Assembly (NCBI GenBank): GCA_013203625.1
Contig: JABMPX010000005.1
Span: 2,305 to 66,304, forward strand
Direction of reading: 5' to 3'
From: Parcubacteria group bacterium
GTDB taxonomy: Bacteria > Patescibacteriota > Minisyncoccia > Portnoybacterales > UBA2143
Length of the DNA: 64,000 nt
Position numbers and translations under genes: made by a program. Position 1 is the first letter of the stretch; every line of letters begins with the position of its first letter. Shown in pieces: positions 7,174 to 53,610 of the stretch. The notes beneath the pieces are model-generated. The model had not been told where the DNA came from and did no database searches. It saw only the letters and a program-made list of their open reading frames with translations.

Positions 7174-8895
7174 ATGAGGCAATGGCGTATTTATGTATTA
7201 ATAGTTTTTGTTTTTTTATTAGGTAGCGGGGTTATAGCTCGTTTATTTTTTCTTCAGATTTTACAATACGATTATTATAGCGTTTTAGCTCAGGATCAGC
7301 AGCAATTTTTACAAACGCTTTTTCCTAAAAGAGGGGAAGTTTTTATGCAGGACTTATCTAGCAGTCAACGAAGCAATGAAGAGCATTATTTTTCTTTAGC
7401 TGTTAATAAAGAATTTAAACAGATCTATGTTGTTCCCAGAGATATTCCTAACGAAGAAAAAGAAGATTTATCCAATAAACTGTCTTATATTCTTGATTTA
7501 GACAAAGAAACCATTTTAAGTAGAATTAATAAATTAAATGATCCTTATGAACCTTTAAAACATAAAGTTGATCAGGAAATAGTTCAACAAATAAACGATT
7601 TAAACGCTGAAGGAGTAAAATTAGCTTTTGAAACATGGCGGCATTATCCAAATAATTCATTGGCTTGCCATCTGACTGGTTTTGTTGGCATAGTTGATGA
7701 AAAAAAAGTTGGCCAGTATGGATTAGAAGGTTTTTATGAGAACGAGTTAAAAGGAGAACAGGGGCTTTTAAAAGGAGAAAAAGATACTTCTGGCTATTGG
7801 ATTCCTTCTCTGAAACAGAAAATAGAGCCAGCTCAAGATGGAGCCAATCTTATTCTAACCATTGATCAGAATATTCAATTTAAAGCAGAAAAAGAGTTAA
7901 GGCAAGTAGTTGAAAAGTGGCAAGCGGAAAGCGGAACAATTATTATTATGGAACCGCAGACAGGCGCTATCCGGGCAATGGCTAATTGGCCTGTTTTTGA
8001 TCCGAATGAATATGGGAAAGTAGAGAATATAGATATTTTTTTAAATTCTTCAATTCAAAAAGTTTATGAACCAGGTTCAGTTTTTAAACCGATTACCATG
8101 GCAGCTGGATTAGATAGCGGGTATGTTTCGCCAGATACAATTTATATAGATGAAGGACAGATAAGAATAAAAGGAAGTGTTATTAGCAATGTTGACGGGA
8201 TAGCCTATAATAAACAAACAATGACCCAAGTTTTGGAAAAGTCTCTTAATACAGGAGCTGTTTTTGTCCAACAAAAGATTGGCACGGATGTTTTTCAGGA
8301 TTATGTGCAAAGATTTGATTTTGACCGGCCAACTGGCATTGATTTAATTGGCGAAGTTGGCGGTAATATTTCCAACTTATATACTGGTAGAGCGATTAAT
8401 TTAGCTAATATTTCCTTTGGACAAGGCATTACAGTTACTCCATTAGGATTGATTACGGGTTTAGGAGCAATTGCTAACAATGGAAAATTGATGCGTCCTT
8501 TTATTATCGAGAAGATAATTAAGCCAGATGGAGAAGAAATAATTACCGGACATCAAACAATTAGACAGGTTATTTCTTCACAAACAGCTGAAAATTTAAC
8601 AAAAATGTTGGTTAGTGTAGTTGATAATGGCTATGGTAAACCAGCTCAAATTAAAGGTTATAATGTAGCTGGAAAAACAGGAACAGCTCAAGTTCCTGAT
8701 TTTGAAAAAGGCGGTTATTCTGAAGACACTATTCATACTTTTGTTGGTTATGCTCCAGCCTTTGACCCTCAATTTATTATTCTGGTTAAGTTGGATAAGC
8801 CGCATGGAATTCGTTTTGCGTCTGATTCAGTTAGTCCAGTTTTTAAAAGAATAGCAGAGTATTTGTTTAATTATTTAGAGATACCACCACAGTGA
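7174..8895 (+). CDS. ftsI: penicillin-binding protein, FtsI-type transpeptidase
   Basis: N-terminal TM, SVFKP (SxxK) and KTGTA motifs; 573 aa. Confidence 0.85.
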   Translation: MRQWRIYVLIVFVFLLGSGVIARLFFLQILQYDYYSVLAQDQQQFLQTLFPKRGEVFMQDLSSSQRSNEEHYFSLAVNKEFKQIYVVPRDIPNEEKEDLSNKLSYILDLDKETILSRINKLNDPYEPLKHKVDQEIVQQINDLNAEGVKLAFETWRHYPNNSLACHLTGFVGIVDEKKVGQYGLEGFYENELKGEQGLLKGEKDTSGYWIPSLKQKIEPAQDGANLILTIDQNIQFKAEKELRQVVEKWQAESGTIIIMEPQTGAIRAMANWPVFDPNEYGKVENIDIFLNSSIQKVYEPGSVFKPITMAAGLDSGYVSPDTIYIDEGQIRIKGSVISNVDGIAYNKQTMTQVLEKSLNTGAVFVQQKIGTDVFQDYVQRFDFDRPTGIDLIGEVGGNISNLYTGRAINLANISFGQGITVTPLGLITGLGAIANNGKLMRPFIIEKIIKPDGEEIITGHQTIRQVISSQTAENLTKMLVSVVDNGYGKPAQIKGYNVAGKTGTAQVPDFEKGGYSEDTIHTFVGYAPAFDPQFIILVKLDKPHGIRFASDSVSPVFKRIAEYLFNYLEIPPQ

Positions 8896-20577: not shown

Positions 20578-22443
20578 ATGACTAAAATTATTGGCATAGA
20601 TTTAGGAACATCTAATTCAGCAGCTTCAGTAGTTGAAGCTGGCAAACCAACTCTAATTCCTTCAGCTGAAGGAACAGTAGTTGGCGGTGGCAAGGCATTC
20701 CCATCTTATGTAGCTTTTGATAAAGATAATAATCTTTTAGTTGGCGAGTCAGCCCGGCGCCAAGCAATTACTAATCCTAAAAATACGATTACTGCTTTTA
20801 AGCGGAAAATGGGGACTAAGGAAAAATATTCTATAAATAATAAAGATTATACGCCGCAGCAGTTATCCTCTTTTATTTTGCAAAAAATTAAGAAAGACGC
20901 TGAATCATTTTTAGGCGAACCGATACAAAAAGCGGTTATTACAGTGCCAGCTTATTTCAATGACTCTCAAAGGCAGGCGACTAAAGATGCCGGAGCAATT
21001 GCTGGTTTGGAAGTGGAAAGAATTATTAATGAGCCAACAGCAGCTTCTTTAGCTTATGGGATTGACAAGGTGGACAAAGAAGAAAAGATTTTTGTTTTTG
21101 ATTTTGGCGGCGGCACATTAGATGTGACTATTATGGATTTTGGCGATGGAGTTTTTGAAGTTAAATCCACTTCTGGCGATACTGAATTAGGCGGTACTGA
21201 TATGGATGAAATTTTAGTAGATTATATTACAGAAGAATTTAAAAAAGATAATAGCATTGATTTAAAGCAAGACGAAACTGCTGTTCAAAGAGTTAAAGAA
21301 GCAGCGGAAAAAGCAAAAATTGAGCTTTCTTCTACTTTAGAAACAGATCTTAATTTGCCTTTTCTTAGCGCTGATTCAGCTGGGCCAAAGCATCTAACAA
21401 TGAAAATCACCAGAGCTAAATTGGAGGAATTAATAAAGCCAATTATTGAAAAATGCCGCGGGCCAATAGAACAAGCATTAAAAGACTCTAAATTAACGCC
21501 AAATGACATAACTAAAATTATTTTAGTAGGCGGTCCAACCAGAATGCCTATTGTTCAGAGATTTGTTGAGGATTATGTAGGCAAGAAAATTGAAAGGGGA
21601 GTTGACCCAATGGAATGCGTAGCCATGGGAGCGGCTATTCAGGGAGGAATTTTAACTGGCGAGACCAAAGAAGTGCTTTTGCTTGATGTTACTCCATTAA
21701 CTTTAGGGATAGAAACATTAGGCAATGTAATGACACCATTAATTGAAAGAAATACAACAGTACCAGCTTCAAAATCCCAGATTTTTTCAACAGCAGCTGA
21801 TAATCAGCCAGCAGTAGATATTCACGTTCTACAAGGGGAAAGGCCAATGGCTGGCGATAACAGAACATTAGGCAAGTTTATGTTAGACGGTATTCCGCCA
21901 GCTCCGCGGGGAGTTCCTCAAATTGAGGTTACTTTTGATATTGACGCTAATGGCATTTTAGATGTAAAAGCCAAAGATAAAGCTACCAATAAGGAACAGC
22001 ATATTACTATTACTGATTCCTCGGCTCTTTCTAAAGAAGAAATTGAGAAAATGAAACAAGAAGCTGAAATTCATGCAACTGAAGATCGTCAGAAAAAAGA
22101 ATTAATTGAAATTCGCAATCAGGCAGATACTTTAATTTTCTCTACAGAAAAAGCATTAAAAGATGCTGGAGACAAAGTAAAACCAGATGATAAAAAACAG
22201 GTTGAGGAAAAATTAGAAGAATTGAAAAAAATAAAAGATTCTAGTGAAATAGAACCTTTGAAAAAAGCAATTGATGAATTGTCTCAAGAAATTCAGAAAA
22301 TAGGAGCTCAATTATATCAAAAAGTTGAAGAAGAAAAAGCAGAACAATCAGAGCCAGAGATAAAAGGGAAAGAATCTAAAGACAAGACAGTTGAAGGGGA
22401 GTATGAGGAAGTAAAGGAAGAGAAGAAAGAAGAGAAGAAATAA
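20578..22443 (+). CDS. dnaK: molecular chaperone DnaK (Hsp70)
   Basis: [24 protein letters not shown] and [11 protein letters not shown] signatures, acidic C-terminal tail. Confidence 0.95.
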
Positions 22444-22457
22444 AATCTTTATTTTCA

Positions 22458-22517
22458 GAGGCCGTGCTTGAAAACACACAATCTTTGCAAAGGTTGTATG
22501 TTTTCAAGCACGGCCTC
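22458..22517 (+). terminator. 18-bp perfect inverted repeat (probable factor-independent terminator or protein site) after dnaK
   Basis: GAGGCCGTGCTTGAAAAC (22458-22475) pairs with GTTTTCAAGCACGGCCTC (22500-22517). The loop has a nested palindrome TTTGCAAA. Only TT follows the stem. Confidence 0.45.
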
Positions 22518-22524
22518 TTGCGTC

Positions 22525-22554
22525 TTGACAAATTGTATAAATTACTGTTAAGAT
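22525..22554 (+). promoter_or_regulatory. putative promoter TTGACA-N18-TAAGAT
   Basis: TTGACA 22525-22530, TAAGAT 22549-22554, upstream of the Wzz-like gene. Confidence 0.3.
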
Positions 22555-22583
22555 GTAGTTGCCTGAGATAAGGCAATTTTTTT

Positions 22584-23285
22584 ATGACTTTTAAACAAAT
22601 AAATAAAATAATTTATCAAAAAAAATGGCTCGTATTCTGGATAACTGTCCTAGGAGCTGTTTTAGCTTTTGACTTAATGGTTATTCAAACTCCAGAGTAT
22701 AAAGCCAGTTCAAAAGTATTAGTTATTCAGAAACAAATAGCTGGGCAGGATATTTACAGTATTTCCAAATCAGCCCAATATCTTTCCAATGTTTTAAAAG
22801 AAGGAATTTATTCTGATAGTTTTTTTGAAAAAGTTGTTCAATCATCTGAACAAATAAAGGAAAGTGATTTCCCTTCTCAATTAAAAGAAAGACGCAAGCA
22901 ATGGGAAGAGGATGTTAAAGTGAATATTATTCGTGATTTAGGAGTTATAGAAATTAGTGTTGTTCATCCAGAAAAAGAAAAAGCCGAACAAATTAATTGG
23001 ACAGTGACTAATGTTTTAGGAGAAAATCATAGATTTTATCATGGCAGCGGACAGAATGTAGAATTGAAAATCTTAAACAAACCATTAGTTGGCGAGAAAC
23101 CAATTAGTACTAATTTATGGCTTGGAACAATTTTAGGCGCTTTAATTGGATTTTGCGCTGGTGTTGGATTAGCTATAAAAAGAACGTTAAAATCTATTAA
23201 ATTGCCCTATGATCCTAAAAATGACCAAGGTTTATTATTAGCTGATAAATCCTCCTCTTTGGATAGAAATGATTTTTCTATCTAA
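22584..23285 (+). CDS. polysaccharide chain-length determinant (Wzz/CpsC-like) protein
   Basis: N-terminal TM (WLVFWITVLGAVLAF), periplasmic-type middle region, C-terminal TM (GTILGALIGFCAGVGLAIKR). Confidence 0.5.
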   Translation: MTFKQINKIIYQKKWLVFWITVLGAVLAFDLMVIQTPEYKASSKVLVIQKQIAGQDIYSISKSAQYLSNVLKEGIYSDSFFEKVVQSSEQIKESDFPSQLKERRKQWEEDVKVNIIRDLGVIEISVVHPEKEKAEQINWTVTNVLGENHRFYHGSGQNVELKILNKPLVGEKPISTNLWLGTILGALIGFCAGVGLAIKRTLKSIKLPYDPKNDQGLLLADKSSSLDRNDFSI

Positions 23286-23311
23286 AAAGGAGGTTTTTAA
23301 GGAGAAGTTCC

Positions 23312-23340
23312 TTGAAAACTTAATATAAAGAATGTAAATT
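23312..23340 (+). promoter_or_regulatory. putative promoter TTGAAA-N17-TAAATT for the exported-protein operon
   Basis: TTGAAA 23312-23317, TAAATT 23335-23340, followed by a ~75-nt leader and a GGGAGGT RBS. Confidence 0.3.
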
Positions 23341-23417
23341 AGACGATAAACAGGTGAGGAAAGCCGAAGTAATAGGACAGAAGCTGACTAACCCTAAAAA
23401 AATGGGAGGTAAAGAGA

Positions 23418-24134
23418 ATGAAAAAGATAATTGTGGTAGCAATGGTGGCATTGGTATTGGGATTTAGTTTATCAACTTTTGCGGCTGAACCTAATTGGAA
23501 GCATCATATTGTTAAAAAAGGCGATACCCTTTCGGGTTTTGCTTATTCTTGTAGGGTTTCTATTGCGAAAATGATTGAATGGAACCCTAAAACAGGAATA
23601 AATCTTATTTATCCGGGCCAAAAACTTAGGTATTTGGTACCACCGGATATAATAGATGTTATTGGCCGAATCAATGAGGTGATTGGGACAATGGATACTA
23701 TTGTGCCTATAATTCAGCAAAGCGATAGTGAAATCAAGAAAATTATCAGGGAAAATCATGACGGTCTTACCCGGCAAATTGGCCAGGTTCAAGCCAAGCA
23801 GAAACAGAATACTGATATTACTGATATCAAAGATACAAGGATTATGGATCTTGCAATTCTTGCGATCTCTTTGTTTGTTGTAGTTTGTATTGTGTGGTTT
23901 CTTATTTTCCGGTTTAGAAAAGAAGGAAATAATGTAAAAATTTGCCCTGATGATCTTGATAAGATTTATAAGATTACCAATGGTGAAATTTCTGGCCCAG
24001 AAAATTATAAGTGTTGTTTTTGCAACAAGATGATCCAGAAACACAATCTTGCTCGTCATGTAACAAAGAGATGTAAAAAGTCACCGTATTACGAACAAAA
24101 AATCAATAAGGAGGAGGTATCAACAAATGAGTAG
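23418..24134 (+). CDS. exported LysM-domain protein with one TM and a cytoplasmic Cys/His-rich tail
   Basis: Signal peptide MKKIIVVAMVALVLGFSLSTFAAEP; LysM (HIVKKGDTLSGFAY...IYPGQKLRY); TM LAILAISLFVVVCIVWFLIF; tail CPDD...KCCFCNKMIQKHNLARHVTKRC. Confidence 0.6.
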   Translation: MKKIIVVAMVALVLGFSLSTFAAEPNWKHHIVKKGDTLSGFAYSCRVSIAKMIEWNPKTGINLIYPGQKLRYLVPPDIIDVIGRINEVIGTMDTIVPIIQQSDSEIKKIIRENHDGLTRQIGQVQAKQKQNTDITDIKDTRIMDLAILAISLFVVVCIVWFLIFRFRKEGNNVKICPDDLDKIYKITNGEISGPENYKCCFCNKMIQKHNLARHVTKRCKKSPYYEQKINKEEVSTNE

Positions 24135-24987
24135 ACTAACAAAGACCGGTTTATTGCTGATAATGGTGGTTTTGTTGTTGACGCTTTTTAGTGCTTGCGC
24201 CAGACGGAATCTTATTATGTCTGAGAAACACATTAATAAAATTCCTGAAGTTGGCCAGGGCTATAGCGTACTTTGGTGTAATTTTCATCCAATTCTTTTG
24301 ATGTCAGAAGGAATTGGCATTAATCATGCTCTTCATTTTTTTGGAAAGGATGAACCGTACATTGCAGTGAAGGTGCGTGAGAATAAACAAAATTTTCAGA
24401 TGATGGTAATCGTGACCGAGGAAGTCAATTTTGCCGAAGATAGAGCGATGATTCCTTCCCGAAGTGGTGAACGTTTTTATTCTGTTGATGGGAAAGATGT
24501 TTTCAGTGAAAATGGCTATTTAGTCCCTAAGTTTGCGTGGACAAAGATAAAGCCATTAGCTGATACTGGGATTGAGATTTGGCAAAATGTTTTACCTGGT
24601 TCTGAAAGAGATCAAAAAGTAAAAAAGATTTTAGCAGGAATAGGCAAGGGCCTTGATCAAGAAATCCCTGGATTATTTGATCGAGTGATGTCTCAAGTTG
24701 CGAAGATTACAACTGAAGATATTGTATTAGCAGGAGCAACAGATTTTACCAGTTTGTTTGGTCTTTTTGGTATCCGGATTTGGGCAGTTGTTAATGCAAT
24801 TGTCCAGAAGGCCGATTTGTCTTTGCCATTTTACGATACGGCAGTAGTTAATAGATTTCAGTTGGCTACTGCTCTTGAGCCATTTAACTCTTTAACCAAA
24901 GAGCAAGAAAGGGCTATTAATAAATGGTTAAAAGCTCTTGAAGGGTGGCAGAAGAGAGTAGATGCTTATGATGCGCAAATTCAATAA
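24127..24987 (+). CDS. hypothetical lipoprotein
   Basis: N-terminal signal with lipobox-like LFSAC. Overlaps the upstream gene by 8 nt. No known catalytic motif. Confidence 0.5.
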   Translation: MSRLTKTGLLLIMVVLLLTLFSACARRNLIMSEKHINKIPEVGQGYSVLWCNFHPILLMSEGIGINHALHFFGKDEPYIAVKVRENKQNFQMMVIVTEEVNFAEDRAMIPSRSGERFYSVDGKDVFSENGYLVPKFAWTKIKPLADTGIEIWQNVLPGSERDQKVKKILAGIGKGLDQEIPGLFDRVMSQVAKITTEDIVLAGATDFTSLFGLFGIRIWAVVNAIVQKADLSLPFYDTAVVNRFQLATALEPFNSLTKEQERAINKWLKALEGWQKRVDAYDAQIQ

Positions 24988-25058
24988 CTAACCAAAAATT
25001 ACCGTAGAAATAAGTAAACTTTATTAAAGTCAAAACCGACTTTAGAGATAACGCTGAA

Positions 25059-25087
25059 GCCCTTAAAAACTTAAAGCTTTTAAGGGC
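25059..25087 (+). promoter_or_regulatory. 10-bp stem hairpin in the 210-nt intra-operon spacer
   Basis: GCCCTTAAAA-acttaaagc-TTTTAAGGGC, flanked by direct ACGCTGAA copies. No U-tract. Confidence 0.3.
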
Positions 25088-25197
25088 CGACGCTGAATCC
25101 AGACGAGGTAAGACAGAAATAGAGTTTCAATTTTTTATTTCAAGGTAGTTTATGGCATGTAACTCCAAAAAATTTATAGAAAGGAGGCAAGAAAGAT

Positions 25198-26829
25198 ATG
25201 AGAATGAAAAGGTTGTTGTTCATGCTGTTAATGATGTTTTTTGCCAGTGTAAACCTTGCCTCTACTAGTCAAGCAGGCAAGATTTATACAGTAGTGGAAC
25301 CCAAAATAACCATAAAGAAGTATAAAGTAGTTGACAAAGATACATTGTCGCAAATATGTTCTCGTTTTTACGGGAATGGCAGGTCGTCTGCTTATAATGC
25401 TTTAGCGGCTTGGGGAAATCAAGTAACACATGAAAAACTTTGGGTTTTTGTAGGACAGATTTTAGAGATTCCCTTTCCTCTGATTTTAAACCAGAACGAA
25501 GCTGGTATTAATCCGACAATTCTGCCAATTGAAGAAACAACCAAATTGACAATTAAACAATTAAAACAAAGTTTAACCCAAACTGATATCCAGGCAACTA
25601 TTCCTAATAATCTTTCAAAATCAATTATTTCTGGCTTAAAAACTTCTCAGAAATTTCATAATTTAAACAATGAAATTGTAGCAGCTGTTAGCTTTGGCAA
25701 AAAAGCGCAGGGCTGGACCATGATTAACGTTAAAAAAGAGTTAATTGGGAAATCCACATCTTCAACTATTAATAAAAATTTTGAGATTAGAGCCACTTTG
25801 CCCGATTGCAATAACCTATATTTACAGTTAATTCGGGTTTCTGAGAAAAAGCTTAATGCCAAAAGGATGCTATTACGACTTCCACCCCCACCTCCATTTC
25901 CGCCAATTTTAAAAGCCGAAATTCAAAAGGTCTTACTTGCTGAATATGCAAAAATTATAGCTAAATATGGTTGGGATTGGGATTCCACAGGGGGTTATTT
26001 CAAAGAGCGTTATACGGACGGAAACAATGTCAAAGGTTGGTGGCAGTCAAGCGTTCTTTATCCTTTTGTCTCCAATGACATTGAGGGCAATGAATGGTCA
26101 TTTGGTCTGGCTTATACTATTAGAGATTGGTCTGGGGAAACCGGTGAAGTAAACCCGTTCTATTATAATGGCATAGTGAATATTGAGTCATTGGCTGGAC
26201 GCTTTCGGGATAGCGACCGAAATTGGGAAATTCTTGGCCGAGTTGGACTTGGTCAACGCGAAGATAGTGGCTATTTAACTAATGAGTGGGGTCGTTTTGA
26301 CACGGAGCAAGAAACAAACATTTTTAATGCTTATTCTTCTGCTGAATACAGCGAAAATAAGACGTGGTTTTCCAAAATACGTGTTTCTGGCGAAGTAGAA
26401 ATAGGGCTCAATGAAGAGAAAGAAAGCTATTGGACTGACCAATGGGATGGTCGACAAAAGTTGGATAATCAACCTGATGATAAAGATAGATATGAATTTG
26501 CTCTATACTCTGATGTTTTTACTTTTGACGAAGACAAGAATATTCAGATTTGGAGCGAATTTCGAAGCACTTACTATAATGAAGAATATAAATGGGGGAA
26601 CGGAATAAAAGGTGGTTTATCATTCTTAAATGGTTCTTTGAAAGTAGGTCTTGGCTATACAGCATGGAACCAGAGCAATGCAGATTCTACTGGTTTTTAT
26701 GGAGAGGTGAATCTGTATAATCTTTACCATTGTGCTTTCGGCTATCCAAAAAGATATTCTGATGAAGATATTTTTGTTCCAATTAACCAGAAGGAAAAAG
26801 AGGAAGAGATTTTAGAAATGTTAATGTAA
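25198..26829 (+). CDS. secreted protein: N-terminal LysM-like domain, poly-proline linker, C-terminal beta-barrel-like domain
   Basis: Signal peptide ending ASTSQA; YKVVDKDTLSQICSRFYG...VGQILEIP (LysM-like); LRLPPPPPFPP; C-terminal ~300 aa Gly/aromatic-rich with alternating hydrophobics. GGAGG RBS. Confidence 0.55.
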   Translation: MRMKRLLFMLLMMFFASVNLASTSQAGKIYTVVEPKITIKKYKVVDKDTLSQICSRFYGNGRSSAYNALAAWGNQVTHEKLWVFVGQILEIPFPLILNQNEAGINPTILPIEETTKLTIKQLKQSLTQTDIQATIPNNLSKSIISGLKTSQKFHNLNNEIVAAVSFGKKAQGWTMINVKKELIGKSTSSTINKNFEIRATLPDCNNLYLQLIRVSEKKLNAKRMLLRLPPPPPFPPILKAEIQKVLLAEYAKIIAKYGWDWDSTGGYFKERYTDGNNVKGWWQSSVLYPFVSNDIEGNEWSFGLAYTIRDWSGETGEVNPFYYNGIVNIESLAGRFRDSDRNWEILGRVGLGQREDSGYLTNEWGRFDTEQETNIFNAYSSAEYSENKTWFSKIRVSGEVEIGLNEEKESYWTDQWDGRQKLDNQPDDKDRYEFALYSDVFTFDEDKNIQIWSEFRSTYYNEEYKWGNGIKGGLSFLNGSLKVGLGYTAWNQSNADSTGFYGEVNLYNLYHCAFGYPKRYSDEDIFVPINQKEKEEEILEMLM

Positions 26830-26851
26830 TACCAAAACAGGAGGCATCAAA

Positions 26852-27514
26852 ATGAAAAGGTTATTTAAATTAATTGCAATGATTGCAACCGCATTTTTTT
26901 TGATTAGTGGATGCGCAGCTATTCAAAAAAAGGGTACAACAAAAAACTGGGAAAAGGAAGTAAAGGAGATAATGAACACTGGTGTAACCGAGGCAGATCC
27001 TAATGTTTTGGCCAAAGATAGTAAATCTGTGATCACGGTTGAGGACATAGGTGACAGGGTTTATTATACGATTACTAATCCGTGGTTAACCCCCAAAGGG
27101 GATACCAAAGGCAAGAATTTAAAGCGGGCCGTTAAACTGAAAATCGCCTCGGGGATTCTGGATGCAAAAGGGAAAAACCCATATTTTACCATGGTAGAAG
27201 TCAAAGATAACAAGGCCGAATTTAGTCTTCCGAATTTTGCCCGGGCCAAGGGTGTAAAAGTTCCTGTGGTTGAACATGGCTGGGGATATGGCCAAGCAGC
27301 TGACGGAACTGTTGGTTATTTGGTTCTTGACCCCAATAGCCCATGGGTTGTATATAAGACAAAAGCTTTTGGAGGGCATCTGACAGAGTCAAGGGACAGA
27401 GCTGATCTGGAAACATTGGCCATAGGGTCAGTTATGTATCCAGGTAAACCAACCGCGCCATTAAAGGCGATTGGAAAAGGCAAGTTGAAACAGGGTATGC
27501 ACCCTGAATTATAA
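26852..27514 (+). CDS. hypothetical lipoprotein
   Basis: Signal plus lipobox FLISGC, GGAGG RBS. No known catalytic motif. Confidence 0.55.
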   Translation: MKRLFKLIAMIATAFFLISGCAAIQKKGTTKNWEKEVKEIMNTGVTEADPNVLAKDSKSVITVEDIGDRVYYTITNPWLTPKGDTKGKNLKRAVKLKIASGILDAKGKNPYFTMVEVKDNKAEFSLPNFARAKGVKVPVVEHGWGYGQAADGTVGYLVLDPNSPWVVYKTKAFGGHLTESRDRADLETLAIGSVMYPGKPTAPLKAIGKGKLKQGMHPEL

Positions 27515-27519
27515 AAAAA

Positions 27520-27578
27520 GCCGGAAAAACCGGCAAGCAATAACCCCATACGTTAAGGAGGAAACGAATGGGGTTTTT
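27520..27578. terminator. pair of convergent rho-independent terminators
   Basis: GCCGG-aaaaa-CCGGC with an A7 run upstream (a T7 run for the minus-strand gene). CCCCAT...ATGGGG followed by TTTTT for the plus operon. Confidence 0.55.
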
Positions 27579-28803
27579 AATTTTTAATCTTTATCCAACC
27601 GGCCAATAAAATCCAGAAGTTCCATTGAAGCGCGGTAGTTCGCAAAATATTATCAAAAAAACTAGCTATGAATAAACTTAGGCAAATTACTAAAATGCCC
27701 AGACCCAAAACCTTTTCTTGATTAATACTTTTTCTAAAGATTTTGAAAAGTTTTAATAACAAAGCAACAATTAACCAAAAATAAGCTATTAATCCTAAAA
27801 TACCGTTTTCCACAAATATTTTTAAATAATCATTATGAGCATCTAAACTGCCCCAGTTAAACCCGCGGTAAAATTCAGCTAAATTAGTAAAAGTGTCTAG
27901 CCCATAACCAAACCAGGGCTGCCACAAAGATACAGGCAGAATGTCTTGCCAAAGCCGGAACCGCCAGACCATTGACCCATAAGGATCTAAAGTAATTAAT
28001 TCCCATAATCGCTGTTGAAAAATATCAGAAAAGAAATAAATAATTAAAAAGAAAAATAGACCGGCTAAAAGTAATTTTCTGTATTTTAAAATGCCGAAAA
28101 ACAGAATAAAAATAAAAAGACAGGCCAAAGCGCTACGGCTGTAAGTGGCAAAGAGTAAAAGAACTAAAAAAGCAGCAGCTATCCAAATATGAAAATTAAA
28201 ATTTTTCCATGAGACAATATCATCCTTTTTTGTTTCTGACAAAGACAGTAATAAAGAAAGAACTATGCCTAAAATAAAAAAAGTGTAAAAAGCAAAAAGA
28301 CTGGGACATGAAAAAGTGCCGTAAATTCTGTTAAATCCGCCAAAATCATCAGGTAAGCCAAAACCGCCAATTAACTGAACAAAAGCAAAGATGCCAGGTA
28401 AAATATAGCTAATTAGAATAATTTTTAATAAAAGGAGCCAATCTTTTCTGTTTTCTATAAGCTTGTAGGCCAAGAAATAAAGGAAGAAGATGCTGGTTAG
28501 TCGGATGAATTCTCTAATACTACCCAAAGCGTCTATTGAATAAAAAATGCTAATTAATGATAACCCCAAAAAGCAAAGGATAGGATAAAAAAGCGGAATT
28601 GATTTAATTGATTTGAAATTTTTAAAAATAAAAATCAGACAAACTAAAAAGACCAGTCCGCCAATAATAATATTAAGATTTAAATAAGGCAAACTAGAAT
28701 GAATCCTGAATTCTTTTTGGCTAAGGAGATCTAAAGAAGGTCTTAGCAAGACCAAAGCAAGAATAAAATAAAAGAAGTTTTTCTTATCTTTTGCCATTGA
28801 CAT
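27577..28803 (-). CDS. O-antigen ligase/polymerase-like (Wzy_C family) membrane protein
   Basis: About 10-12 TMs with the conserved YSRSALACLF segment. Confidence 0.45.
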   Translation of the reverse strand: MSMAKDKKNFFYFILALVLLRPSLDLLSQKEFRIHSSLPYLNLNIIIGGLVFLVCLIFIFKNFKSIKSIPLFYPILCFLGLSLISIFYSIDALGSIREFIRLTSIFFLYFLAYKLIENRKDWLLLLKIILISYILPGIFAFVQLIGGFGLPDDFGGFNRIYGTFSCPSLFAFYTFFILGIVLSLLLSLSETKKDDIVSWKNFNFHIWIAAAFLVLLLFATYSRSALACLFIFILFFGILKYRKLLLAGLFFFLIIYFFSDIFQQRLWELITLDPYGSMVWRFRLWQDILPVSLWQPWFGYGLDTFTNLAEFYRGFNWGSLDAHNDYLKIFVENGILGLIAYFWLIVALLLKLFKIFRKSINQEKVLGLGILVICLSLFIASFFDNILRTTALQWNFWILLAGWIKIKN

Positions 28804-28832
28804 TTTCCGTAATTTTTAGTAGAATAACAATA

Positions 28833-29876
28833 ATGAAAACAAATAAATCACCCAAAGAAAATCAAATAAAAGATGTTGTTTTAGCAATTACTTACCAATG
28901 TAATGCCCATTGTCAGTTTTGCCATATTTGGAAAAACAAAGAGCGATTTTCTTTACAAGCAGGTGATTATAAAAATTTACCACGAAATACAGAAAACATC
29001 AATATCAGCGGAGGAGAACCATTTTTAAGAAACGACTTACCAGCAATTATCCGTACGATTAATCATCAATGTTCTAGAGCTAAAATTATTATTTCTACTA
29101 ACGGCTTTTTACCAAGCACAATTAAAAGGCAAATGCAGGAAATTATTAAATTCAAAAAAGACATTGGAATTGCTGTTTCTTTAGATGGTTTTGGCAAGGT
29201 TCATGAAGATTTAAGAGGATTTCCAGGCGGATTCAGCTTGGTTTTAGAAAGCATCCGTCTTTTAAGAGATTTAGGCATAAAAAATTTGAAGATTGCTTTT
29301 ACTTTAAATAATAAGAATATTAATCAATTAAAAAGAGTTTATCAATTGAGTAAAGAATTAGGCGTGGAATTCAGTTTAGCAGTTTGTCATGACTCTTCCC
29401 ATTATTTTAAAAAGCAAAACAATGAAATTACAAACACTATACAGATTAAAAGACAAATCAGTTGGTTGATTGAAGAAGAGCTAAAGAGTTTTTCTCCAAA
29501 GAAATGGCTAAGAGCTTATTTTGCCTGGGGCATGCTTGGATTTTTAAAGAATAGAAAAAGAGTCTTGCCGGATTATTCTGGTTTAAATTCCTTGTTTATT
29601 GATCCTTTTGGCAATATTTACCCTTCAGATGTTTGGGATATGAAAATTGGCAGGTTGCAAGAAATAAAAAATTGGAATAGTTTTGTTTTAAAGACAAAAG
29701 AAATACTTTTATCTAAAGACAAAGAAAGACCAAATAGTTGGATGATTTGCACAGCTCGTCAGGCAATGAAAAAACATTGGTTGAAAGTCAGCTTGTGGAT
29801 ATTGCAGACAAAATTTTGCAGCAACAAAAAAGTATATGGTTTTACTTTTGTGCAAAATAGAGCAGCAATACAATGA
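28833..29876 (+). CDS. radical SAM domain protein (polysaccharide-locus associated)
   Basis: CNAHCQFCHIW (CxxxCxxC) near the N-terminus and GGEPFL motif. Start trimmed to ATG 28833 to avoid overlap with the divergent gene. Confidence 0.65.
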   Translation: MKTNKSPKENQIKDVVLAITYQCNAHCQFCHIWKNKERFSLQAGDYKNLPRNTENINISGGEPFLRNDLPAIIRTINHQCSRAKIIISTNGFLPSTIKRQMQEIIKFKKDIGIAVSLDGFGKVHEDLRGFPGGFSLVLESIRLLRDLGIKNLKIAFTLNNKNINQLKRVYQLSKELGVEFSLAVCHDSSHYFKKQNNEITNTIQIKRQISWLIEEELKSFSPKKWLRAYFAWGMLGFLKNRKRVLPDYSGLNSLFIDPFGNIYPSDVWDMKIGRLQEIKNWNSFVLKTKEILLSKDKERPNSWMICTARQAMKKHWLKVSLWILQTKFCSNKKVYGFTFVQNRAAIQ

Positions 29877-36035: not shown

Positions 36036-36109
36036 GCGCCGTTAGCTCAGCCCGGTAGAGCAATTGCCTTTTAAGCAACTGGTCGGGGGTTCGAATCCCT
36101 CACGGCGCA
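36036..36109 (+). tRNA. tRNA-Lys (anticodon TTT)
   Basis: GCGCCGTTAGCTCAGCCCGGTAGAGCA..., anticodon loop CTTTTAA, T-arm GGTTCGAATCCC, 3' ACGGCGCA. Confidence 0.85.
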
Positions 36110-36131
36110 CTGGGAATATATGAATTTAATG

Positions 36132-36160
36132 TTGACATTAGTTTTAGTTGTTAGTAAAAT
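36132..36160 (+). promoter_or_regulatory. promoter TTGACA-N17-TAAAAT for hicBA
   Basis: TTGACA 36132-36137, TAAAAT 36155-36160. The hicB ATG lies only ~9 nt downstream. Confidence 0.4.
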
Positions 36161-36168
36161 ATCAATAT

Positions 36169-36417
36169 ATGAATAAATCTTTTTTATCTAAAATTAAAGA
36201 CAATCGTTTTCCTTTAGTGGTTGAAAAAGACGAAGATGGTTTTTATGTGGTTGAATGCACTCTTTTTAAGGGTTGTTATTCTCAAGGGAAAACATTAGAT
36301 AAGGCCTTAGAAAATATTAAGGAGGTTATTGAGCTTTGTTTGGAGGAAAAAGAAAATCAGGAAATAATAAAATCATATAAGCCTAAAGAATTAAGTCTGC
36401 ATACTATTACGCTTTAA
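36169..36417 (+). CDS. hicB: type II antitoxin, HicB family (UPF0150-type minimal form)
   Basis: GFYVVECTLFKGCYSQGKTLDKALENIKEVIELCLEE matches the HicB N-domain signature (GCvsqGeT.eEA..n..eAi). Confidence 0.7.
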   Translation: MNKSFLSKIKDNRFPLVVEKDEDGFYVVECTLFKGCYSQGKTLDKALENIKEVIELCLEEKENQEIIKSYKPKELSLHTITL

Positions 36418-36420
36418 TTT

Positions 36421-36645
36421 ATGGCGAAATTACCATCAATTTCTGGAAAAAAAGCAATAAAAACATTTGAAAAAATTGGCTACCAAATAATTAGAAAAAA
36501 AGGTAGTCATTTTCGTTTATATCATCCAAATAAAGAGCCAATAACTATTCCTAATCACAAAAATTTAGCTAAAGGGCTTTTAAGAAAAATATTAAGAGAT
36601 GCGGAAATTTCTGTTAAAGAGTTTATTGACTTGCTTAAAAGATAA
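36421..36645 (+). CDS. hicA: type II toxin, HicA family mRNA interferase
   Basis: GKKAIKTFEKIGYQIIRKKGSHFRLYHPN carries the HicA GSH signature and dsRBD-like length (74 aa). Starts 3 nt after hicB. Confidence 0.75.
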   Translation: MAKLPSISGKKAIKTFEKIGYQIIRKKGSHFRLYHPNKEPITIPNHKNLAKGLLRKILRDAEISVKEFIDLLKR

Positions 36646-36768
36646 TTTCAGAGGCCGTGCACATTACCACTAAAAATTGACAGGATAATATATTTATGTT
36701 ATCCTATTTTTAATAGTTCATAGTAGTTCATAAAAAACTGAATAAAAAACTTTAGACAGGAGGTTGTT
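36646..36768 (+). promoter_or_regulatory. regulatory region: ATTTCAGAGGCCGTGC motif, TTGACA, 22-bp palindrome GGATAAtatatttatgTTATCC, direct repeats, AGGAGG RBS
   Basis: Motif 36646-36660; TTGACA 36677-36682; palindrome 36683-36704; AGTTCATA x2 (36715, 36725); ATAAAAAACT x2 (36730, 36742); AGGAGG 36758-36763. Confidence 0.35.
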
Positions 36769-37074
36769 ATGGAAAAGGTTCTTTTAAGAAATGGAAGTGA
36801 AATAGACAAGAATATTGTTGTTGCGATAATGGTGGGAATGGAAATGTTATTGAAAACCGAAAATCCAATGGACAAACACATACTTCTTTATGAGCTGAGA
36901 GAAAGATGTAAAAATCCGAATCATGAATTCTACGCTGATTCGGAAGAAAAACTGAAACAGTATGGATTAATCCAATCCATTGGAATCCATGAATCGGCTC
37001 GTAATATTATTCTGTCAGCCATCAAAGAAGAAGAAGGTGGCGCTATAATGACCTGGGAATCTCCCATGGCATAG
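36769..37074 (+). CDS. hypothetical protein (101 aa, no recognisable family)
   Basis: Strong AGGAGG RBS. GC and codon usage differ from flanking genes. Confidence 0.5.
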   Translation: MEKVLLRNGSEIDKNIVVAIMVGMEMLLKTENPMDKHILLYELRERCKNPNHEFYADSEEKLKQYGLIQSIGIHESARNIILSAIKEEEGGAIMTWESPMA

Positions 37075-37111
37075 AGGGTTAACTCTTAACGAAAAATAAG
37101 GAGGAATTGTG

Positions 37112-37549
37112 ATGGAAAAAGATTGTCCGTTTTGCAATACAGAACAGATGGAAAAAAGTGCGATTTTTCCTAATCCTGACAAATACGAAGATTGGGAAAC
37201 ACAAGGAAACGTTTTTGTTATAAATGTCCTTGCTCCTGCCATGAAAGGACACTGTATGGTCATTCCCCGGGGACATGTAGAATGTCTTTCTGAATTATCG
37301 TCAACCGAAGTTTCAGAACTGTTCCGAGTTGCTGAGAGAACTATTGAAAAATTGAAAGGCCACTTCGGATACGAAGCATTTACGCCTTTCTGGCTTGTGG
37401 GAAGATATAGAACCGTGCCTCATTTTCACCTCCACATTGTTCCGGACATGATTATCAAAAGCCGGAGCCAAGAGGAAAAGGAGGCAACTAAACTTAACCC
37501 TGAACAGAGAGAAAATTTGGTTCAGGAGTTAAGAACAGTCTTATCTTGA
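37112..37549 (+). CDS. HIT (histidine triad) family nucleotide hydrolase/transferase
   Basis: N-terminal CPFC zinc motif and histidine triad VPHFHLHIVP. AGGAGG RBS 8 nt upstream of ATG 37112. Confidence 0.8.
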   Translation: MEKDCPFCNTEQMEKSAIFPNPDKYEDWETQGNVFVINVLAPAMKGHCMVIPRGHVECLSELSSTEVSELFRVAERTIEKLKGHFGYEAFTPFWLVGRYRTVPHFHLHIVPDMIIKSRSQEEKEATKLNPEQRENLVQELRTVLS

Positions 37550-47977: not shown

Positions 47978-48029
47978 AGATATATAGTCGCATAATATAC
48001 CTTAATACACATTTAATATATTTAAATAT

Positions 48030-48974
48030 ATGGACAAAAGCCAAAAACCACTTCCTCAACATTTAACTGACTTTTTGGACTGGTTAGATATTGAAAAAGG
48101 TTTATCTAATAAATCCCAGGAAAACTATTCTCGCTTTCTCAAAAAATTTATTGATTGGTTAGAAGATAATAACCTAAGTAGTTTAAAACCACATGAACTC
48201 TCCCCTGCTCATATTTGGGAATATAGAGTGTACTTGTCTCGTCATTCTAAAAAACCCTTAAAAAAAACAACACAGAACTATTACTTGATTGCTTTAAGGT
48301 CTTTTTTGAATTATTTCGCTAATAGGGATATAATTTCTCTGCCGGCTGAAAAAATTAAATTATCTAAGAGTAAAGATGACAAAAAGGTCCACTTTTTGGA
48401 TTTAGAACAGATAGAAAAATTACTTTCTGCGCCTGATATAAAAAAAATAAATGGCTTGAGGGATAGAACTATCTTAGAGGTTTTATTCTCAACTGGATTA
48501 AGAATTGCCGAATTAGTTTCTCTTAATCGAGATCAGATTAGAATTACTTCCTTAACCAAAGATTTAGAAATTGGCATTGTTGGCAAAGGTAATTATAATA
48601 GAACTATCTATTTTTCAGAAAGAACGATTTACTGGCTTAAGAAATATCTTGATTCTAGGAAAGATAATGATAAAGCTCTTTTTATTAATTACCAAGGAAG
48701 AAAAAATGCTCCTAGGCGTTTAACTGACCGTTCTATTGAAAGAAACATTAAAAAATATTCCTTATTAGCTGGCTTATCAGGAAATACTACTCCACATACT
48801 CTTCGCCATTCTTTTGCTACAGATTTATTATCTAAAGGCGTTGATTTGCGCCTAATCCAAGAGTTTTTAGGACATAGGAATATTGCTACTACCCAGATTT
48901 ATACTCATGTAACTAATAAGCGCTTGAAAGATGTTCATCGTGAATTCCACGGTAATAAAAAATTAGAAGAATAA
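48030..48974 (+). CDS. tyrosine site-specific recombinase (XerC/XerD/phage-integrase family)
   Basis: Catalytic box RHSFATDLLSKGVDLRLIQEFLGHRNIATTQIYTHV (R...HxxR...Y) and N-terminal SAM-like domain. Confidence 0.85.
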   Translation: MDKSQKPLPQHLTDFLDWLDIEKGLSNKSQENYSRFLKKFIDWLEDNNLSSLKPHELSPAHIWEYRVYLSRHSKKPLKKTTQNYYLIALRSFLNYFANRDIISLPAEKIKLSKSKDDKKVHFLDLEQIEKLLSAPDIKKINGLRDRTILEVLFSTGLRIAELVSLNRDQIRITSLTKDLEIGIVGKGNYNRTIYFSERTIYWLKKYLDSRKDNDKALFINYQGRKNAPRRLTDRSIERNIKKYSLLAGLSGNTTPHTLRHSFATDLLSKGVDLRLIQEFLGHRNIATTQIYTHVTNKRLKDVHREFHGNKKLEE

Positions 48975-48978
48975 ATTT

Positions 48979-50124
48979 ATGCGTATTTCTTATTCCGGGT
49001 TAGAAGCATTTTCTAATTGTCCGGCTAGATATAAATTTCAATATATTGAACGAATAAAAGCTCCTAAATCTAAGGAAGTAATTTTTGGCACTTTGGTTCA
49101 TGATTGTTTAAAGATGTTCCACGAACCAAGCCAGTCAACTCCTGTTTCTGAAGAAGATTTACTTAAATATTTTACTGAAAAATGGAATAGTGATATTTAT
49201 CAAGATAAACAAGAAGAAGCTTTTGCTTTTCATCAAGGAATTGAAATATTAAAAAAATATTATTTGCAAAACCAAGGAATTGATTTTAATATTGTTAATC
49301 TAGAAATACCTTTTGAAGTGCCTATTTTAGAAGAAGAACTTCATCAAATCACTGGCCGTATTGATCGCATTGATAAATTAGAAGACGGCACTTTTGAAAT
49401 AATTGATTATAAAACAAGCAAGAAGATGCCTTCGCAAGAAGATATTAATAGAAATTTCCAGCTTTCAATTTATTATTTAGGAGTAATTAATCGCTGGCCG
49501 TCTTTACAAAAGCAGAACAGACCAATCAAATTATCTCTTCATTATTTAAGACACAATGAAAAGCTTTCTACTATTCAAACTAATAAAAAAATTAAAGAAA
49601 CAAAACAAAAGATTTTATCTATAATAGATGAAATTAAAAAAAGCTCTTTTGAGCCAAAAATGAATCCTCTTTGCGACTGGTGCCAGTATCAGCCATATTG
49701 TCCTTTATTTAAGCATAAATTTATTAAGGAACAATCCCCTGCTCTTGATGAACAAGAAATCAAAGATGTAATTAAAGAATATTTTGAAATAAAAAGCGAA
49801 CAAGGAGCAGAAACAAAACGATTATCTGAATTAAAAGAAATCATTAATCAATATTGCGATAAAAATAAAATAGACAGAGTTTTTGGCGATAATGGATATA
49901 TTACTCGCCTTTCACAACAGAGATTTGCCTATAATTTTAATAAAGTCAAAGAAATTCTTGAACCAATTAATAAATGGGATCAGATTTTAACCATTGATAA
50001 AGTCAAATTTAAAAAAGTTGTTGATTCCCTGCCTTATGATTTAAAAAAACAAATTGATGAAGCTAAAACACTAGAACGAGAGTTTAAAGTAATGACAATG
50101 AAAGCAAATAAGCGCGAAAAATAA
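48979..50124 (+). CDS. PD-(D/E)XK nuclease with Cas4/AddB-type 4-Cys cluster
   Basis: N-terminal Cys (SNCPARYKF), GRIDRID...EIIDYKTSKK (D..ExK core), C-terminal CDWCQYQPYC (CxxCx5C). Confidence 0.6.
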   Translation: MRISYSGLEAFSNCPARYKFQYIERIKAPKSKEVIFGTLVHDCLKMFHEPSQSTPVSEEDLLKYFTEKWNSDIYQDKQEEAFAFHQGIEILKKYYLQNQGIDFNIVNLEIPFEVPILEEELHQITGRIDRIDKLEDGTFEIIDYKTSKKMPSQEDINRNFQLSIYYLGVINRWPSLQKQNRPIKLSLHYLRHNEKLSTIQTNKKIKETKQKILSIIDEIKKSSFEPKMNPLCDWCQYQPYCPLFKHKFIKEQSPALDEQEIKDVIKEYFEIKSEQGAETKRLSELKEIINQYCDKNKIDRVFGDNGYITRLSQQRFAYNFNKVKEILEPINKWDQILTIDKVKFKKVVDSLPYDLKKQIDEAKTLEREFKVMTMKANKREK

Positions 50125-50125
50125 C

Positions 50126-50524
50126 TCATGGCTTATATCCAGCAGGAATATATTTTTCAAAACTACTGCATCTGATATAGCCAGCAGCTTGAGCTTCGGC
50201 TTCTGAAGAAAACCAAATTTGATTTTCTTCAGATATCCTTTTGGCAAATGAACAATTTGGCCAATGATATTTGTTGCTGTTTTTACTGCCAACAAATATT
50301 CCCTGCTCTTTTGATTGATTAGTTTCTGATACTGTTTGTTGAATTGAAGCAGTTTGGGTAGTTTGATCTGTAATTGGATTTTGAATAACAATAGGCTCAA
50401 TATCTGCTTGAGGAGCGGTTAATTGGCCAGCTCCAAAACTAATTAAAGCTATTAAGATAATACCAATTGTTAAAATAATATCAGATTCATTTTTCTTGAC
50501 GAATTCTTTGAAATTAGATAACAT
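50126..50524 (-). CDS. hypothetical membrane-anchored protein with C-terminal YHWPNC...GYxRC motif
   Basis: N-terminal TM (ILTIGIILIALISFGAG), Thr/Gln-rich linker, small C-terminal Cys/His domain. Confidence 0.4.
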   Translation of the reverse strand: MLSNFKEFVKKNESDIILTIGIILIALISFGAGQLTAPQADIEPIVIQNPITDQTTQTASIQQTVSETNQSKEQGIFVGSKNSNKYHWPNCSFAKRISEENQIWFSSEAEAQAAGYIRCSSFEKYIPAGYKP

Positions 50525-50530
50525 TATAAT

Positions 50531-50803
50531 ATGTCTAAAACAAAATCAGCTGGTTCAACTAGTTTAGGCCGGGATTCCAGGCCAAAATATTTAGGAGTTA
50601 AATTATCTGGAGGACAAAAAGCCCAGCCAGGAAGTATTATTGTGCGTCAAAGAGGAACAAAATTTTTGCCTGGCAAGAATGTCCGACGCGGGAAAGACGA
50701 TACTCTTTATTCAATTATCAAGGGTGTAGTCCAGTTTACTACAAAACGCATTAAACGTTTTGACGGTTCCAGAAGAATCGCCAAAGTAGTTAATGTAGAA
50801 TAA
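50531..50803 (+). CDS. rpmA: 50S ribosomal protein L27
   Basis: MSKTKSAGSTSLGRDSRPKYLGVKLSGGQ... Confidence 0.9.
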   Translation: MSKTKSAGSTSLGRDSRPKYLGVKLSGGQKAQPGSIIVRQRGTKFLPGKNVRRGKDDTLYSIIKGVVQFTTKRIKRFDGSRRIAKVVNVE

Positions 50804-50830
50804 TTTAACAAAAATAATTTAACAAAAAAG

Positions 50831-50856
50831 CATACTAAGTAGTATGTTTTTTTGTT
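50831..50856. terminator. rho-independent terminator, likely bidirectional (rpmA / rplI)
   Basis: CATACT-aagt-AGTATG hairpin flanked by an A-run upstream and a T7 run downstream. Confidence 0.45.
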
Positions 50857-50865
50857 TTAGTGCTG

Positions 50866-51312
50866 TTATTTTTCTTCTAGAACAATTACTTTTATTTTGG
50901 TTTCTAAATTATGAGGAAATTCAATAGCTATTTCATATTCACCGAGCTCTTTGATCGGGTCTTTTAATTTAACCTGTTCCTTTTTAATTTTAAATCCTTT
51001 TTCTTTTAATTTTTCAGCAATCTGATTAGCAGTGATTGCTCCAAAAAGTTTACCTTCTTCATTAATCTTAACTGGAACTTCTAATTCCAATCCATCTATT
51101 TGACTGGCTATTCCTTGGAAAAGAGCTAATTCTTCTTCAGCTTTTTGCGTATCAATTTTTTTCTGCTCTTCTGCCTGAGCCATTTCTGATTTAGTTGCCA
51201 AAACAGCCATTTGTTTAGGAATTAAAAAATTACGAGCATAGCCATCAGCCACTTGTTTAATCTCACCTTCTTTGCCTAATTTTTCTACATCTTTAAGTAA
51301 AATTACTTTCAT
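50866..51312 (-). CDS. rplI: 50S ribosomal protein L9
   Basis: [34 protein letters not shown]. Confidence 0.85.
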
Positions 51313-51327
51313 ATTATTTATAAACTA

Positions 51328-51603
51328 TTAATATTTTATTTTGAAATTTTCAAATTGACCAGTTGCTTCTTCCCAATCAATATCTATTTTATCAACTTTA
51401 GCTAACATAGATCCATTATAGCACCAATCAATGAATTGCTTCAAGTCCTTTTCTTTCCCCTCAGCTACTATCTTAACTGTTCCATCTAATTCATTCATAA
51501 CCCAGCCCGTCAGATCTAATTTTTTAGCTTTTCTTCTTGTTGAATCCCTAAAAAATACTTTTTGCACTCTTCCATAAATTTTAAGAGTTGCTTGTTTATT
51601 CAT
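51328..51603 (-). CDS. acyP: acylphosphatase
   Basis: LKIYGRVQKVFFRDSTRRKAKKLDLTGWVMNELDGTV matches the acylphosphatase signatures. Confidence 0.7.
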   Translation of the reverse strand: MNKQATLKIYGRVQKVFFRDSTRRKAKKLDLTGWVMNELDGTVKIVAEGKEKDLKQFIDWCYNGSMLAKVDKIDIDWEEATGQFENFKIKY

Positions 51604-53604: not shown

Positions 53605-53610
53605 AATTTA

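Follow-up and report, generated by a model that had tools for sequence, protein, structure and literature searches.

Positions 23286-27578 of a 64,000-nucleotide stretch of contig JABMPX010000005.1, from a Parcubacteria group bacterium, carry four co-oriented genes, g1 to g4. The whole stretch is called the window below. The four open reading frames (ORFs) are real, as first annotated from the sequence alone, and every product has an export signal. The reading favored here, at a probability of about 0.6, is that this block is one form (type A) of an envelope cassette that is restricted to Parcubacteria. The cassette would occupy a fixed slot between a Wzz-family and a Wzy_C-family gene, and g3 would encode a wall-tethered β-barrel. 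The new point is a predicted family of LysM-tethered barrels of the outer membrane type that is found only in Parcubacteria and maintained in a swappable cassette. This cassette comes in at least two interchangeable forms that have diverged deeply. The initial annotation described the block as a horizontally acquired, peptidoglycan-binding surface module with its own transcription unit. The surface module and the transcription unit are supported, and the module is indeed accessory and exchangeable. However, import from outside the lineage is not borne out, since the named homologs of g2, g3, and g4 are Patescibacteria. The cassette is native to the lineage and exchangeable, not a foreign import.

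The predicted g3 barrel and the Wzz/Wzy_C slot

The genes of the block and their two conserved flanks are as follows (aa, amino acids; nt, nucleotides).

25198-26829, + strand: g3, 543 aa
25969-26742, + strand: predicted β-barrel domain of g3 (residues 258-515)
23418-24134, + strand: g1, 238 aa by ORF translation, with GGAGG 8 nt before the start
24127-24987, + strand: g2, predicted lipoprotein of 286 aa with an LFSAC lipobox; its start overlaps the g1 stop codon
26852-27514, + strand: g4, predicted lipoprotein of 220 aa with an ISGC lipobox and a beta-sandwich fold
22584-23285, + strand: Wzz-family chain-length determinant (Pfam PF02706, E 9e-8), the conserved left flank
27577-28803, - strand: Wzy_C membrane protein (O-antigen ligase/polymerase family; Pfam E 9e-19), the conserved right flank

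The protein that defines the cassette is g3. A signal peptide is followed by a divergent LysM domain (residues ~39-92), a middle domain without a recognized fold, a PPPPPFPP linker (228-236), a helix (240-257), a predicted 12-stranded β-barrel and about 28 further residues. The barrel comes from an AlphaFold2 (AF2) model built on a 13-sequence alignment, which predicts 12 long antiparallel strands for residues 258-515 with a predicted local distance difference test score (pLDDT) of 81-93. In this model each strand is aromatic or hydrophobic on one side and polar or charged on the other, which is the pattern expected of a lipid-embedded barrel with a water-filled lumen. A closed, antiparallel, membrane-spanning barrel with an alternating hydrophobic face would place g3 in the 12-stranded class of outer membrane proteins (OMPs). 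Foldseek searches with the model independently return autotransporter β-domains (E ~1e-6). The initial annotation found no characterized family beyond LysM. This is true of sequence searches with g1 to g4, where LysM is the sole family match (Pfam, NCBIfam, PHROGs, and PADLOC), and a profile search of PDB sequences gives nothing at E ≤ 10. At the level of the fold the statement fails for the g3 barrel.

The LysM domain of g3 is less secure than the annotation implied when it counted two LysM proteins and two lipoproteins. The g1 LysM and the lipoboxes of g2 and g4 are sound (see below), but the g3 LysM is weak. It scores 14 bits in Pfam, below the cut-off of 20.9, and E 5e-4 with the NCBIfam LysM model, and AF2 gives residues 40-91 a β-α-α-β topology at low pLDDT. 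The threshold is passed by the g3 homolog P0002 and by 21 of 32 barrel-family members. g3 is 100% identical to a protein from a metagenome-assembled genome (MAG) of the Parcubacteria group. One side observation is that the public annotation of this MAG gives g3 541 aa (start region 25198-25203) as opposed to the 543 aa used here.

The family is small. Among 5.8 billion clusters there are 13 homologs of g3, 22 of g2 and 16 of g4, and every named one belongs to the Patescibacteria. An exhaustive HMMER search of 1.84 billion representative proteins with a barrel profile finds 34 proteins only. LysM occurs in 21 of the 32 that were scanned and another Pfam domain in none of them, and all members with a name are assigned to Parcubacteria or Patescibacteria. 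Variation in g3 is greatest in the N-terminal LysM and middle region, which comes in two types before the same barrel.

The slot is as constant as its contents are variable. The order (DnaK)-Wzz-slot-Wzy_C-rSAM-GT4-DUF4012-GT4 (rSAM, radical SAM) is found in 16 loci, two of them with 43% flank identity. Wzz adjoins the slot in all related loci; GrpE, Hsp20, and DnaK genes lie upstream of it. The initial annotation had looked to synteny for presence or absence of the block in relatives. Cassette content does differ at the locus, but a LysM-barrel gene fills the Wzz/Wzy slot even in the distant relatives with 43% flank identity. Type A slots are those of the window and of loci L001, L004-L006, L011, L012, L015, L018, and L019, and also of the distant L021 and L022. 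Type B slots (L007, L009, L010, L013, L014, L016, and L017) contain genes for a ~340-aa lipoprotein, a LysM protein, a LysM-barrel protein and a ~185-aa exported protein. No locus has both types. The A and B barrel proteins are distant homologs (hhalign probability 95%, E 2e-8) and even resemble each other in the kind of LysM and middle region at the N-terminus. Comparison of g2 with the 340-aa type B lipoprotein gives an hhalign probability of 3%, and g4 matches the small type B protein in the signal peptide only. Because these partner comparisons failed, homology between the types is demonstrable for the barrel protein only.

Two further observations concern the relatives. The L008 slot has no barrel module. 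It was considered as an empty slot and rejected on inspection, which revealed an inverted Wzz and one unrelated lipoprotein. Specifically, at L008 5325-8000 the inverted Wzz is in tandem with Wzy_C, and beyond Wzz there is a gene for a 190-aa Cys-rich predicted lipoprotein (7369-7941). The second observation is that the MAGs of L007, L009, L010, L014, L017, L018, and L019 are labeled uncultured Candidatus Saccharibacteria bacterium. These loci have 58-81% flank protein identity to Parcubacteria/Portnoybacteria loci, and so the label looks generic or wrong.

How have closely related genomes come to hold different cassettes? A neighbor-joining tree of six concatenated flank proteins (2335 columns) has clades with 100% bootstrap support that mix the types: the window (A) with L007 (B), L010 (B) with L012 (A), and L004 and L015 (A) with L016 (B). 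The closest relative, L007 (80.5% flank protein identity), has a different cassette in the same slot. This mixing of types in sister genomes points to replacement by recombination. In addition, g4 ranks the relatives unlike the flanks. The window g4 is 57% identical to that of L012 and 30% to that of L001, whereas the flanks are 65% identical to both. The slot borders are conserved at the DNA level irrespective of cassette type. The simplest explanation is that close relatives have repeatedly exchanged the cassette, and homologous recombination within the conserved borders is the most likely mechanism.

What if the cassette has descended purely vertically? In this scenario it would be ancestral at the locus and subject to fast diversifying evolution. 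Types A and B would be old alleles or paralogs sorted by loss, and the high third-position GC and the Shine-Dalgarno (SD) sites of the cassette genes (see below) would be kept by selection for strong translation. The universal position in the slot and the homology of the barrels of both types are what this scenario predicts. It would also accommodate cassette proteins that are 40-57% identical where the flanks of the same genome pairs are 59-67% identical, and SD sites that are kept in every genomic background. However, it must then explain why three sister pairs with 100% bootstrap differ in type and why the partner lipoproteins of A and B have no detectable homology. The lack of any locus with both types does not fit either, nor does the disagreement between g4 and the flanks in ranking the relatives. 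Purely vertical descent is therefore considered unlikely, although it deserves to be kept in mind.

The partner proteins and the proposed envelope role

The products encoded around g3 also look like envelope proteins. g1 consists of a signal peptide, a LysM domain (residues 30-71), one transmembrane helix (~144-166) and a cytoplasmic tail rich in Cys and His. Its LysM is a clear member of PF01476 (39.3 bits against the cut-off of 20.9, E 6e-10 in Pfam). Beyond the LysM, g1 has no tblastn match in related loci, and this part may be specific to the window genome. In the tail (residues ~178-238, 23950-24131), Cys and His occur in a pattern, CPDD...CCFCNKMIQKHNLARHVTKRC, reminiscent of a small zinc finger.

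Both predicted lipoproteins have the conservation expected of lipid-anchored proteins. The lipobox Cys24 of g2 is invariant across an alignment of 14 homologs. The public MAG annotation starts g2 at Met31 (256 aa; 24127-24216 dropped) and so loses the lipoprotein signal peptide. The longer start has a GGAGGAGG site 9 nt upstream, and g2 homologs are 272-311 aa long. The lipobox Cys of g4 is conserved in at least 90% of its homologs; relatives without it are found in L018, L019, L021, and L022. The g4 model is confident (mean pLDDT 80) and predicts a beta-sandwich whose structural neighbors are only generic FN3/Ig/CBM-like folds. The g4 gene is always directly 3' of the barrel gene, and g4 is probably a partner of the barrel.

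A working model can be assembled from these parts. LysM would hold g3 to peptidoglycan, with the barrel in a lipid layer outside the wall. g3 might then serve as a wall-tethered pore or anchor, in an outer or a host lipid layer. The beta-sandwich protein g4, usually lipid-anchored, would be its probable partner, g2 an accessory lipid-anchored partner, and g1 an accessory protein that links the cytoplasmic membrane to the wall. The cassette might also help to export or display the glycan made by the neighboring genes, and its proteins might be glycosylated by the Wzy_C-family enzyme. Among the other genes of the window are those for peptidoglycan synthesis and for an LCP wall-glycopolymer ligase.

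Several points weigh against the favored reading. The general view is that Patescibacteria have a single membrane (PMC12102498; PMC11809585), and the LCP enzyme encoded in the window is typical of monoderm walls. No outer membrane biogenesis gene was found among the scanned ORFs of at least 100 aa in the 64-kb window and the 10-kb flanks of the relatives, a scan in which nine ORFs were identified from L001 synteny or left unscanned and in which the search for Bam, Lpt, and Lol was not genome-wide. The g3 barrel is a prediction from an alignment of 13 sequences, the N-terminal half of g3 is modeled at low confidence, and its putative LysM is below the Pfam threshold in the window genome. The tie between the cassette and the flanking glycan genes is one of invariable adjacency only. 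Finally, the trees behind the proposed swapping are neighbor-joining only, and the ancestor may instead have had both types, with different ones lost in different descendants.

If the barrel prediction is nevertheless taken at face value, where would the barrel sit? There may be an outer layer in this lineage that has been overlooked, the barrel may be inserted in a host membrane, or the prediction may be misleading. It is tentatively suggested that Portnoybacteria-like Parcubacteria make a wall-tethered barrel with lipoprotein partners, which would imply an overlooked outer lipid layer or a barrel planted in a host membrane for attachment and uptake. If an overlooked layer is true, it would be a relic of a diderm ancestor or a reinvention.

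The host version deserves separate consideration. Here the cassette would serve for host attachment and feeding. The barrel would be inserted into the outer membrane of the host, LysM would stay on the wall of the epibiont or bind that of the host, and cassette variability would reflect host range. Small barrels of the class predicted for g3 are able to fold into bilayers in vitro in the absence of BAM. The hypervariability and swapping of the cassette would fit such a role, as would the concentration of variability within g3 in the N-terminal LysM and middle region. A host membrane would also sidestep the view that the phylum has no outer membrane (PMC12102498; PMC11809585). However, the cassette has no genes for a secretion or delivery apparatus. 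Its lipoprotein partners and the membrane-anchored g1 point instead to a structure built on the envelope of the producer itself. The constant linkage to the cell's own Wzz/Wzy glycan genes also counts against a host target. On balance, delivery into a host is rather improbable.

Two other regions of the window can be mentioned here. A second surface-glycan cluster on the - strand (52816-57191) encodes a GT2, an LCP (LytR_cpsA_psr) ligase, another GT2 and a second Wzy_C. In addition, GC skew is positive over 1-48 kb and negative from 51 kb, and genes change from the + to the - strand at ~50.1 kb (convergent). At this strand switch there are genes for a XerC/D-type tyrosine recombinase (48030-48974) and a PD-(D/E)XK nuclease (48979-50124). 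The pattern at ~48000-51500 fits a replication terminus.

Borders, composition and the question of import

The block is its own transcription unit, closed off by a terminator hairpin at the left end and by two terminators back to back at the right end. The signals are as follows.

23251-23298, + strand: left border hairpin, terminator-like; it spans the Wzz stop codon and is followed by a T-run
23312-23340, + strand: promoter-like site TTGAAA-N17-TAAATT, score 9/12
25059-25087, + strand: hairpin GCCCTTAAAAACTT/AAGCTTTTAAGGGC in the 210-nt g2-g3 spacer, with no T-run
27520-27578, no strand assigned: two back-to-back terminator hairpins between the convergent g4 and Wzy_C genes

The left hairpin has a minimum free energy of -25.4 kcal/mol (z -4.3). 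Over 13 loci, 92% of its cells are paired, against at most 67% for slid controls, and there are 4 compensatory pairs. Its position is kept in 12 related loci, including the last Wzz codons and the stop. The 3' arm is a GGAGG that serves no start codon and pairs with CCTCC within the Wzz coding sequence. At the right border, the convergent terminators of the initial annotation are present as hairpins at 27520-27534 and 27539-27578, and an AACCCC...GGGGTT terminator hairpin is kept in relatives. The own promoter that was proposed has fared less well. The site exists, but such matches are no commoner than in shuffled sequence (23 against 16.6 ± 3.6), and only its -35 region (TTGAAAAnTTAAATA) is kept in relatives, just after the left hairpin. 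The internal hairpin is also where it was annotated. However, it is not a conserved feature, because the g2-g3 spacer is just 44-80 nt in L001 and L004. A search of 22400-27800 against Rfam gave chance-level matches only.

The initial annotation made much of base composition, and part of this survives. The GC content of the block is raised (37.6% against 32.1% for the rest of the window), the highest among 598 windows of the same size and ~3.2 standard deviations above the mean. The claimed 43% is not a block value; it holds only at spots such as 26161-26220 and 27001-27500. GC at third codon positions (GC3) is 0.31-0.39 in the block genes and ~0.235 elsewhere in the window. The coding GC excess of 5.8 points is made up of 2.6 from amino-acid composition and 3.2 from codon choice. 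Per gene, the GC3 excess has a z of 1.5-3.6, and four other genes equal it (L21, Hsp20, the ORF at 36769, and HIT). Codon usage in the block differs significantly for Glu, Lys, Leu, Gly, Thr, Val, and Arg. Among the G/C-ending codons that had been singled out, CGG is enriched, but CCG is not significantly so and GGC is not at all (30% against 30%). The actual shift is toward the G-ending purine codons GAG, AAG, CTG, GTG, and AGG, and the C-ending pyrimidine codons TTC, TAC, and GAC show no enrichment in the block. The SD sites are as annotated. GGAGG is found 7-10 nt before all four start codons, and an SD-like motif is found at 6 of the 62 other genes.

Do these features mark the block as foreign? 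Comparison of 16 loci suggests that they do not. GC and GC3 are raised in the slot relative to flank genes in 14 of the 16, and slot genes exceed flank genes by 6.3 points in GC (p 1.5e-4) and 9.0 points in GC3 (p 5.8e-4). This excess falls with increasing host GC (r -0.71). An SD motif is found before 35 of 53 slot genes and before 16 of 235 flank genes (p 1e-19). Raised GC and SD sites are a standing property of the cassette in nearly all relatives. Since they travel with the cassette in most of them, they neither prove nor date a recent import, and their use as foreign marks in the initial annotation has to be given up. High-expression codon bias was also tried as a general cause of the GC3 and SD pattern and rejected, DnaK and the genes for ribosomal proteins L10, L7/L12, and L9 having neither. 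SD sites and GC3 are not the general high-expression mark of this genome, because the L10, L7/L12, and L9 genes have no SD sites and low GC3. The composition may reflect either a cassette pool with a composition of its own across genomes of 28-45% GC, or selection or biased gene conversion at the slot.

Tests for a genomic island give a divided result. The composition of the block is atypical, if modestly so, with a GC3 of 0.33 against 0.235, and its content is polymorphic among close relatives. No integrase, adjacent tRNA or flanking direct repeats are found in or beside the slot of the window, and direct repeats across 22400-28900 are short, imperfect chance pairs with no att-like signature. 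A phage origin was considered and rejected, as a scan of viral contigs and tblastn against phages gave no relatives of g3. In PHROGs only the LysM parts match (endolysins), and PADLOC gives no hits. Elsewhere, an rve-family (IS-type) integrase gene is directly upstream of Wzz in three type A loci (L004 1052-2128, L005 263-1264, and L006 133-1134). It is the sole mobility gene near any slot.

These results bear on the possibility of a recent import from a compositionally different donor outside the lineage, not yet ameliorated. Such an event would explain why the block tops the GC distribution, why its codon usage departs significantly for seven amino acids, why SD sites are rare elsewhere in the window and why L007, the closest relative, is without these genes. 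However, the named homologs are all Patescibacteria, with 13-34 relatives in databases of billions of proteins, and the family sits in the same slot in distant relatives. In 14 of 16 loci the cassette comes with the GC excess and the SD sites, even where host GC is about equal. The nearest type A relatives are 50-60% identical, and so the donor would have to be unsampled or the event old. There are also no mobility genes, direct repeats or phage relatives. Recent import is therefore very unlikely. An assembly chimera or contaminating fragment, suggested by the local GC step at both borders, can be dismissed, since 15 other MAGs have the same gene order and identical sequence spans both junctions in JGI 3300032737 and two Logan runs.

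A second small insertion relative to L001 occurs at 36036-37549. It contains tRNA-Lys(ttt) (36036-36110), HicB-like (36148-36417) and HicA-like (36421-36645) ORFs recognized by eye, a 101-aa ORF (36769-37074) and a HIT-family gene (37109-37549). Both the 101-aa ORF and the HIT-family gene resemble the cassette in having GGAGG SD sites and a GC3 of 0.35-0.37. At this place in L001, a gene for a 181-aa membrane protein is followed directly by the aspartyl-tRNA synthetase gene.

Meaning and comparison with known systems

Why does this cassette matter? Wall-tethered β-barrels such as OmpM are markers in the debate about the diderm-to-monoderm transition. Relevant to this debate is whether the Candidate Phyla Radiation (CPR) ever possessed an outer membrane and whether it lost it or kept part of it. 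A CPR-restricted, LysM-tethered barrel with a predicted OMP fold and lipoprotein partners offers a concrete protein for testing. A swappable slot with its own SD sites, GC and hairpin borders also points to something like serotype switching, but based on proteins, in organisms about whose surface biology and interactions with hosts or phages almost nothing is known. For genome scans there is a caution, namely that atypical GC and SD sites alone are no proof of recent foreign origin.

There is a close parallel in architecture with the OmpM/Slp-type tethers of diderm Terrabacteria, which combine an SLH domain with an outer membrane β-barrel (10.1101/2021.05.31.446380). OmpM is an abundant envelope protein in the Terrabacteria, the clade that also contains the CPR. 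Like g3, it has a signal peptide, an N-terminal wall-binding domain, an extended linker and a C-terminal membrane β-barrel. However, g3 has LysM and no SLH match in Pfam, and so it shares the logic of OmpM without being a member of that family. The predicted g3 barrel has 12 strands, is closest to autotransporter and KdgM-class barrels and is not of porin size. Moreover, there is no sequence homology between OmpM and g3, and the phylum of g3 is regarded as monoderm.

The autotransporters provide a second comparison. g3 can be likened to the LysM-plus-barrel part of intimin, an inverse autotransporter (intimin/invasin, type Ve). However, g3 has no C-terminal passenger and no Pfam match to the β-domain, which sets it apart from this class, and between LysM and barrel it has a 130-residue middle domain and a polyproline linker. 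With the classical autotransporters (BrkA, NalP, Hbp, AIDA-I, EspP; type Va) the likeness is at fold level only, and in this comparison the g3 helix is modeled at low confidence. g3 has no Pfam match to PF03797 at E ≤ 0.1, and its N-terminus is a ~230-residue LysM-containing domain, not a β-helix passenger. OmpA-family proteins tie a barrel non-covalently to peptidoglycan via a proline-rich hinge, and the function of g3 would be analogous. However, in g3 the domain order is reversed, there are 12 predicted strands instead of 8, and LysM takes the place of OmpA_C.

At the level of the locus, a comparison can be made with the serotype-type loci for O-antigen and capsule. In both cases a variable segment of atypical GC lies between conserved flanks, is replaced as a unit and encodes surface structures. 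The difference is in what varies. The cassette encodes exported proteins, not sugar-synthesis enzymes, and here the adjacent glycan genes are the conserved part.

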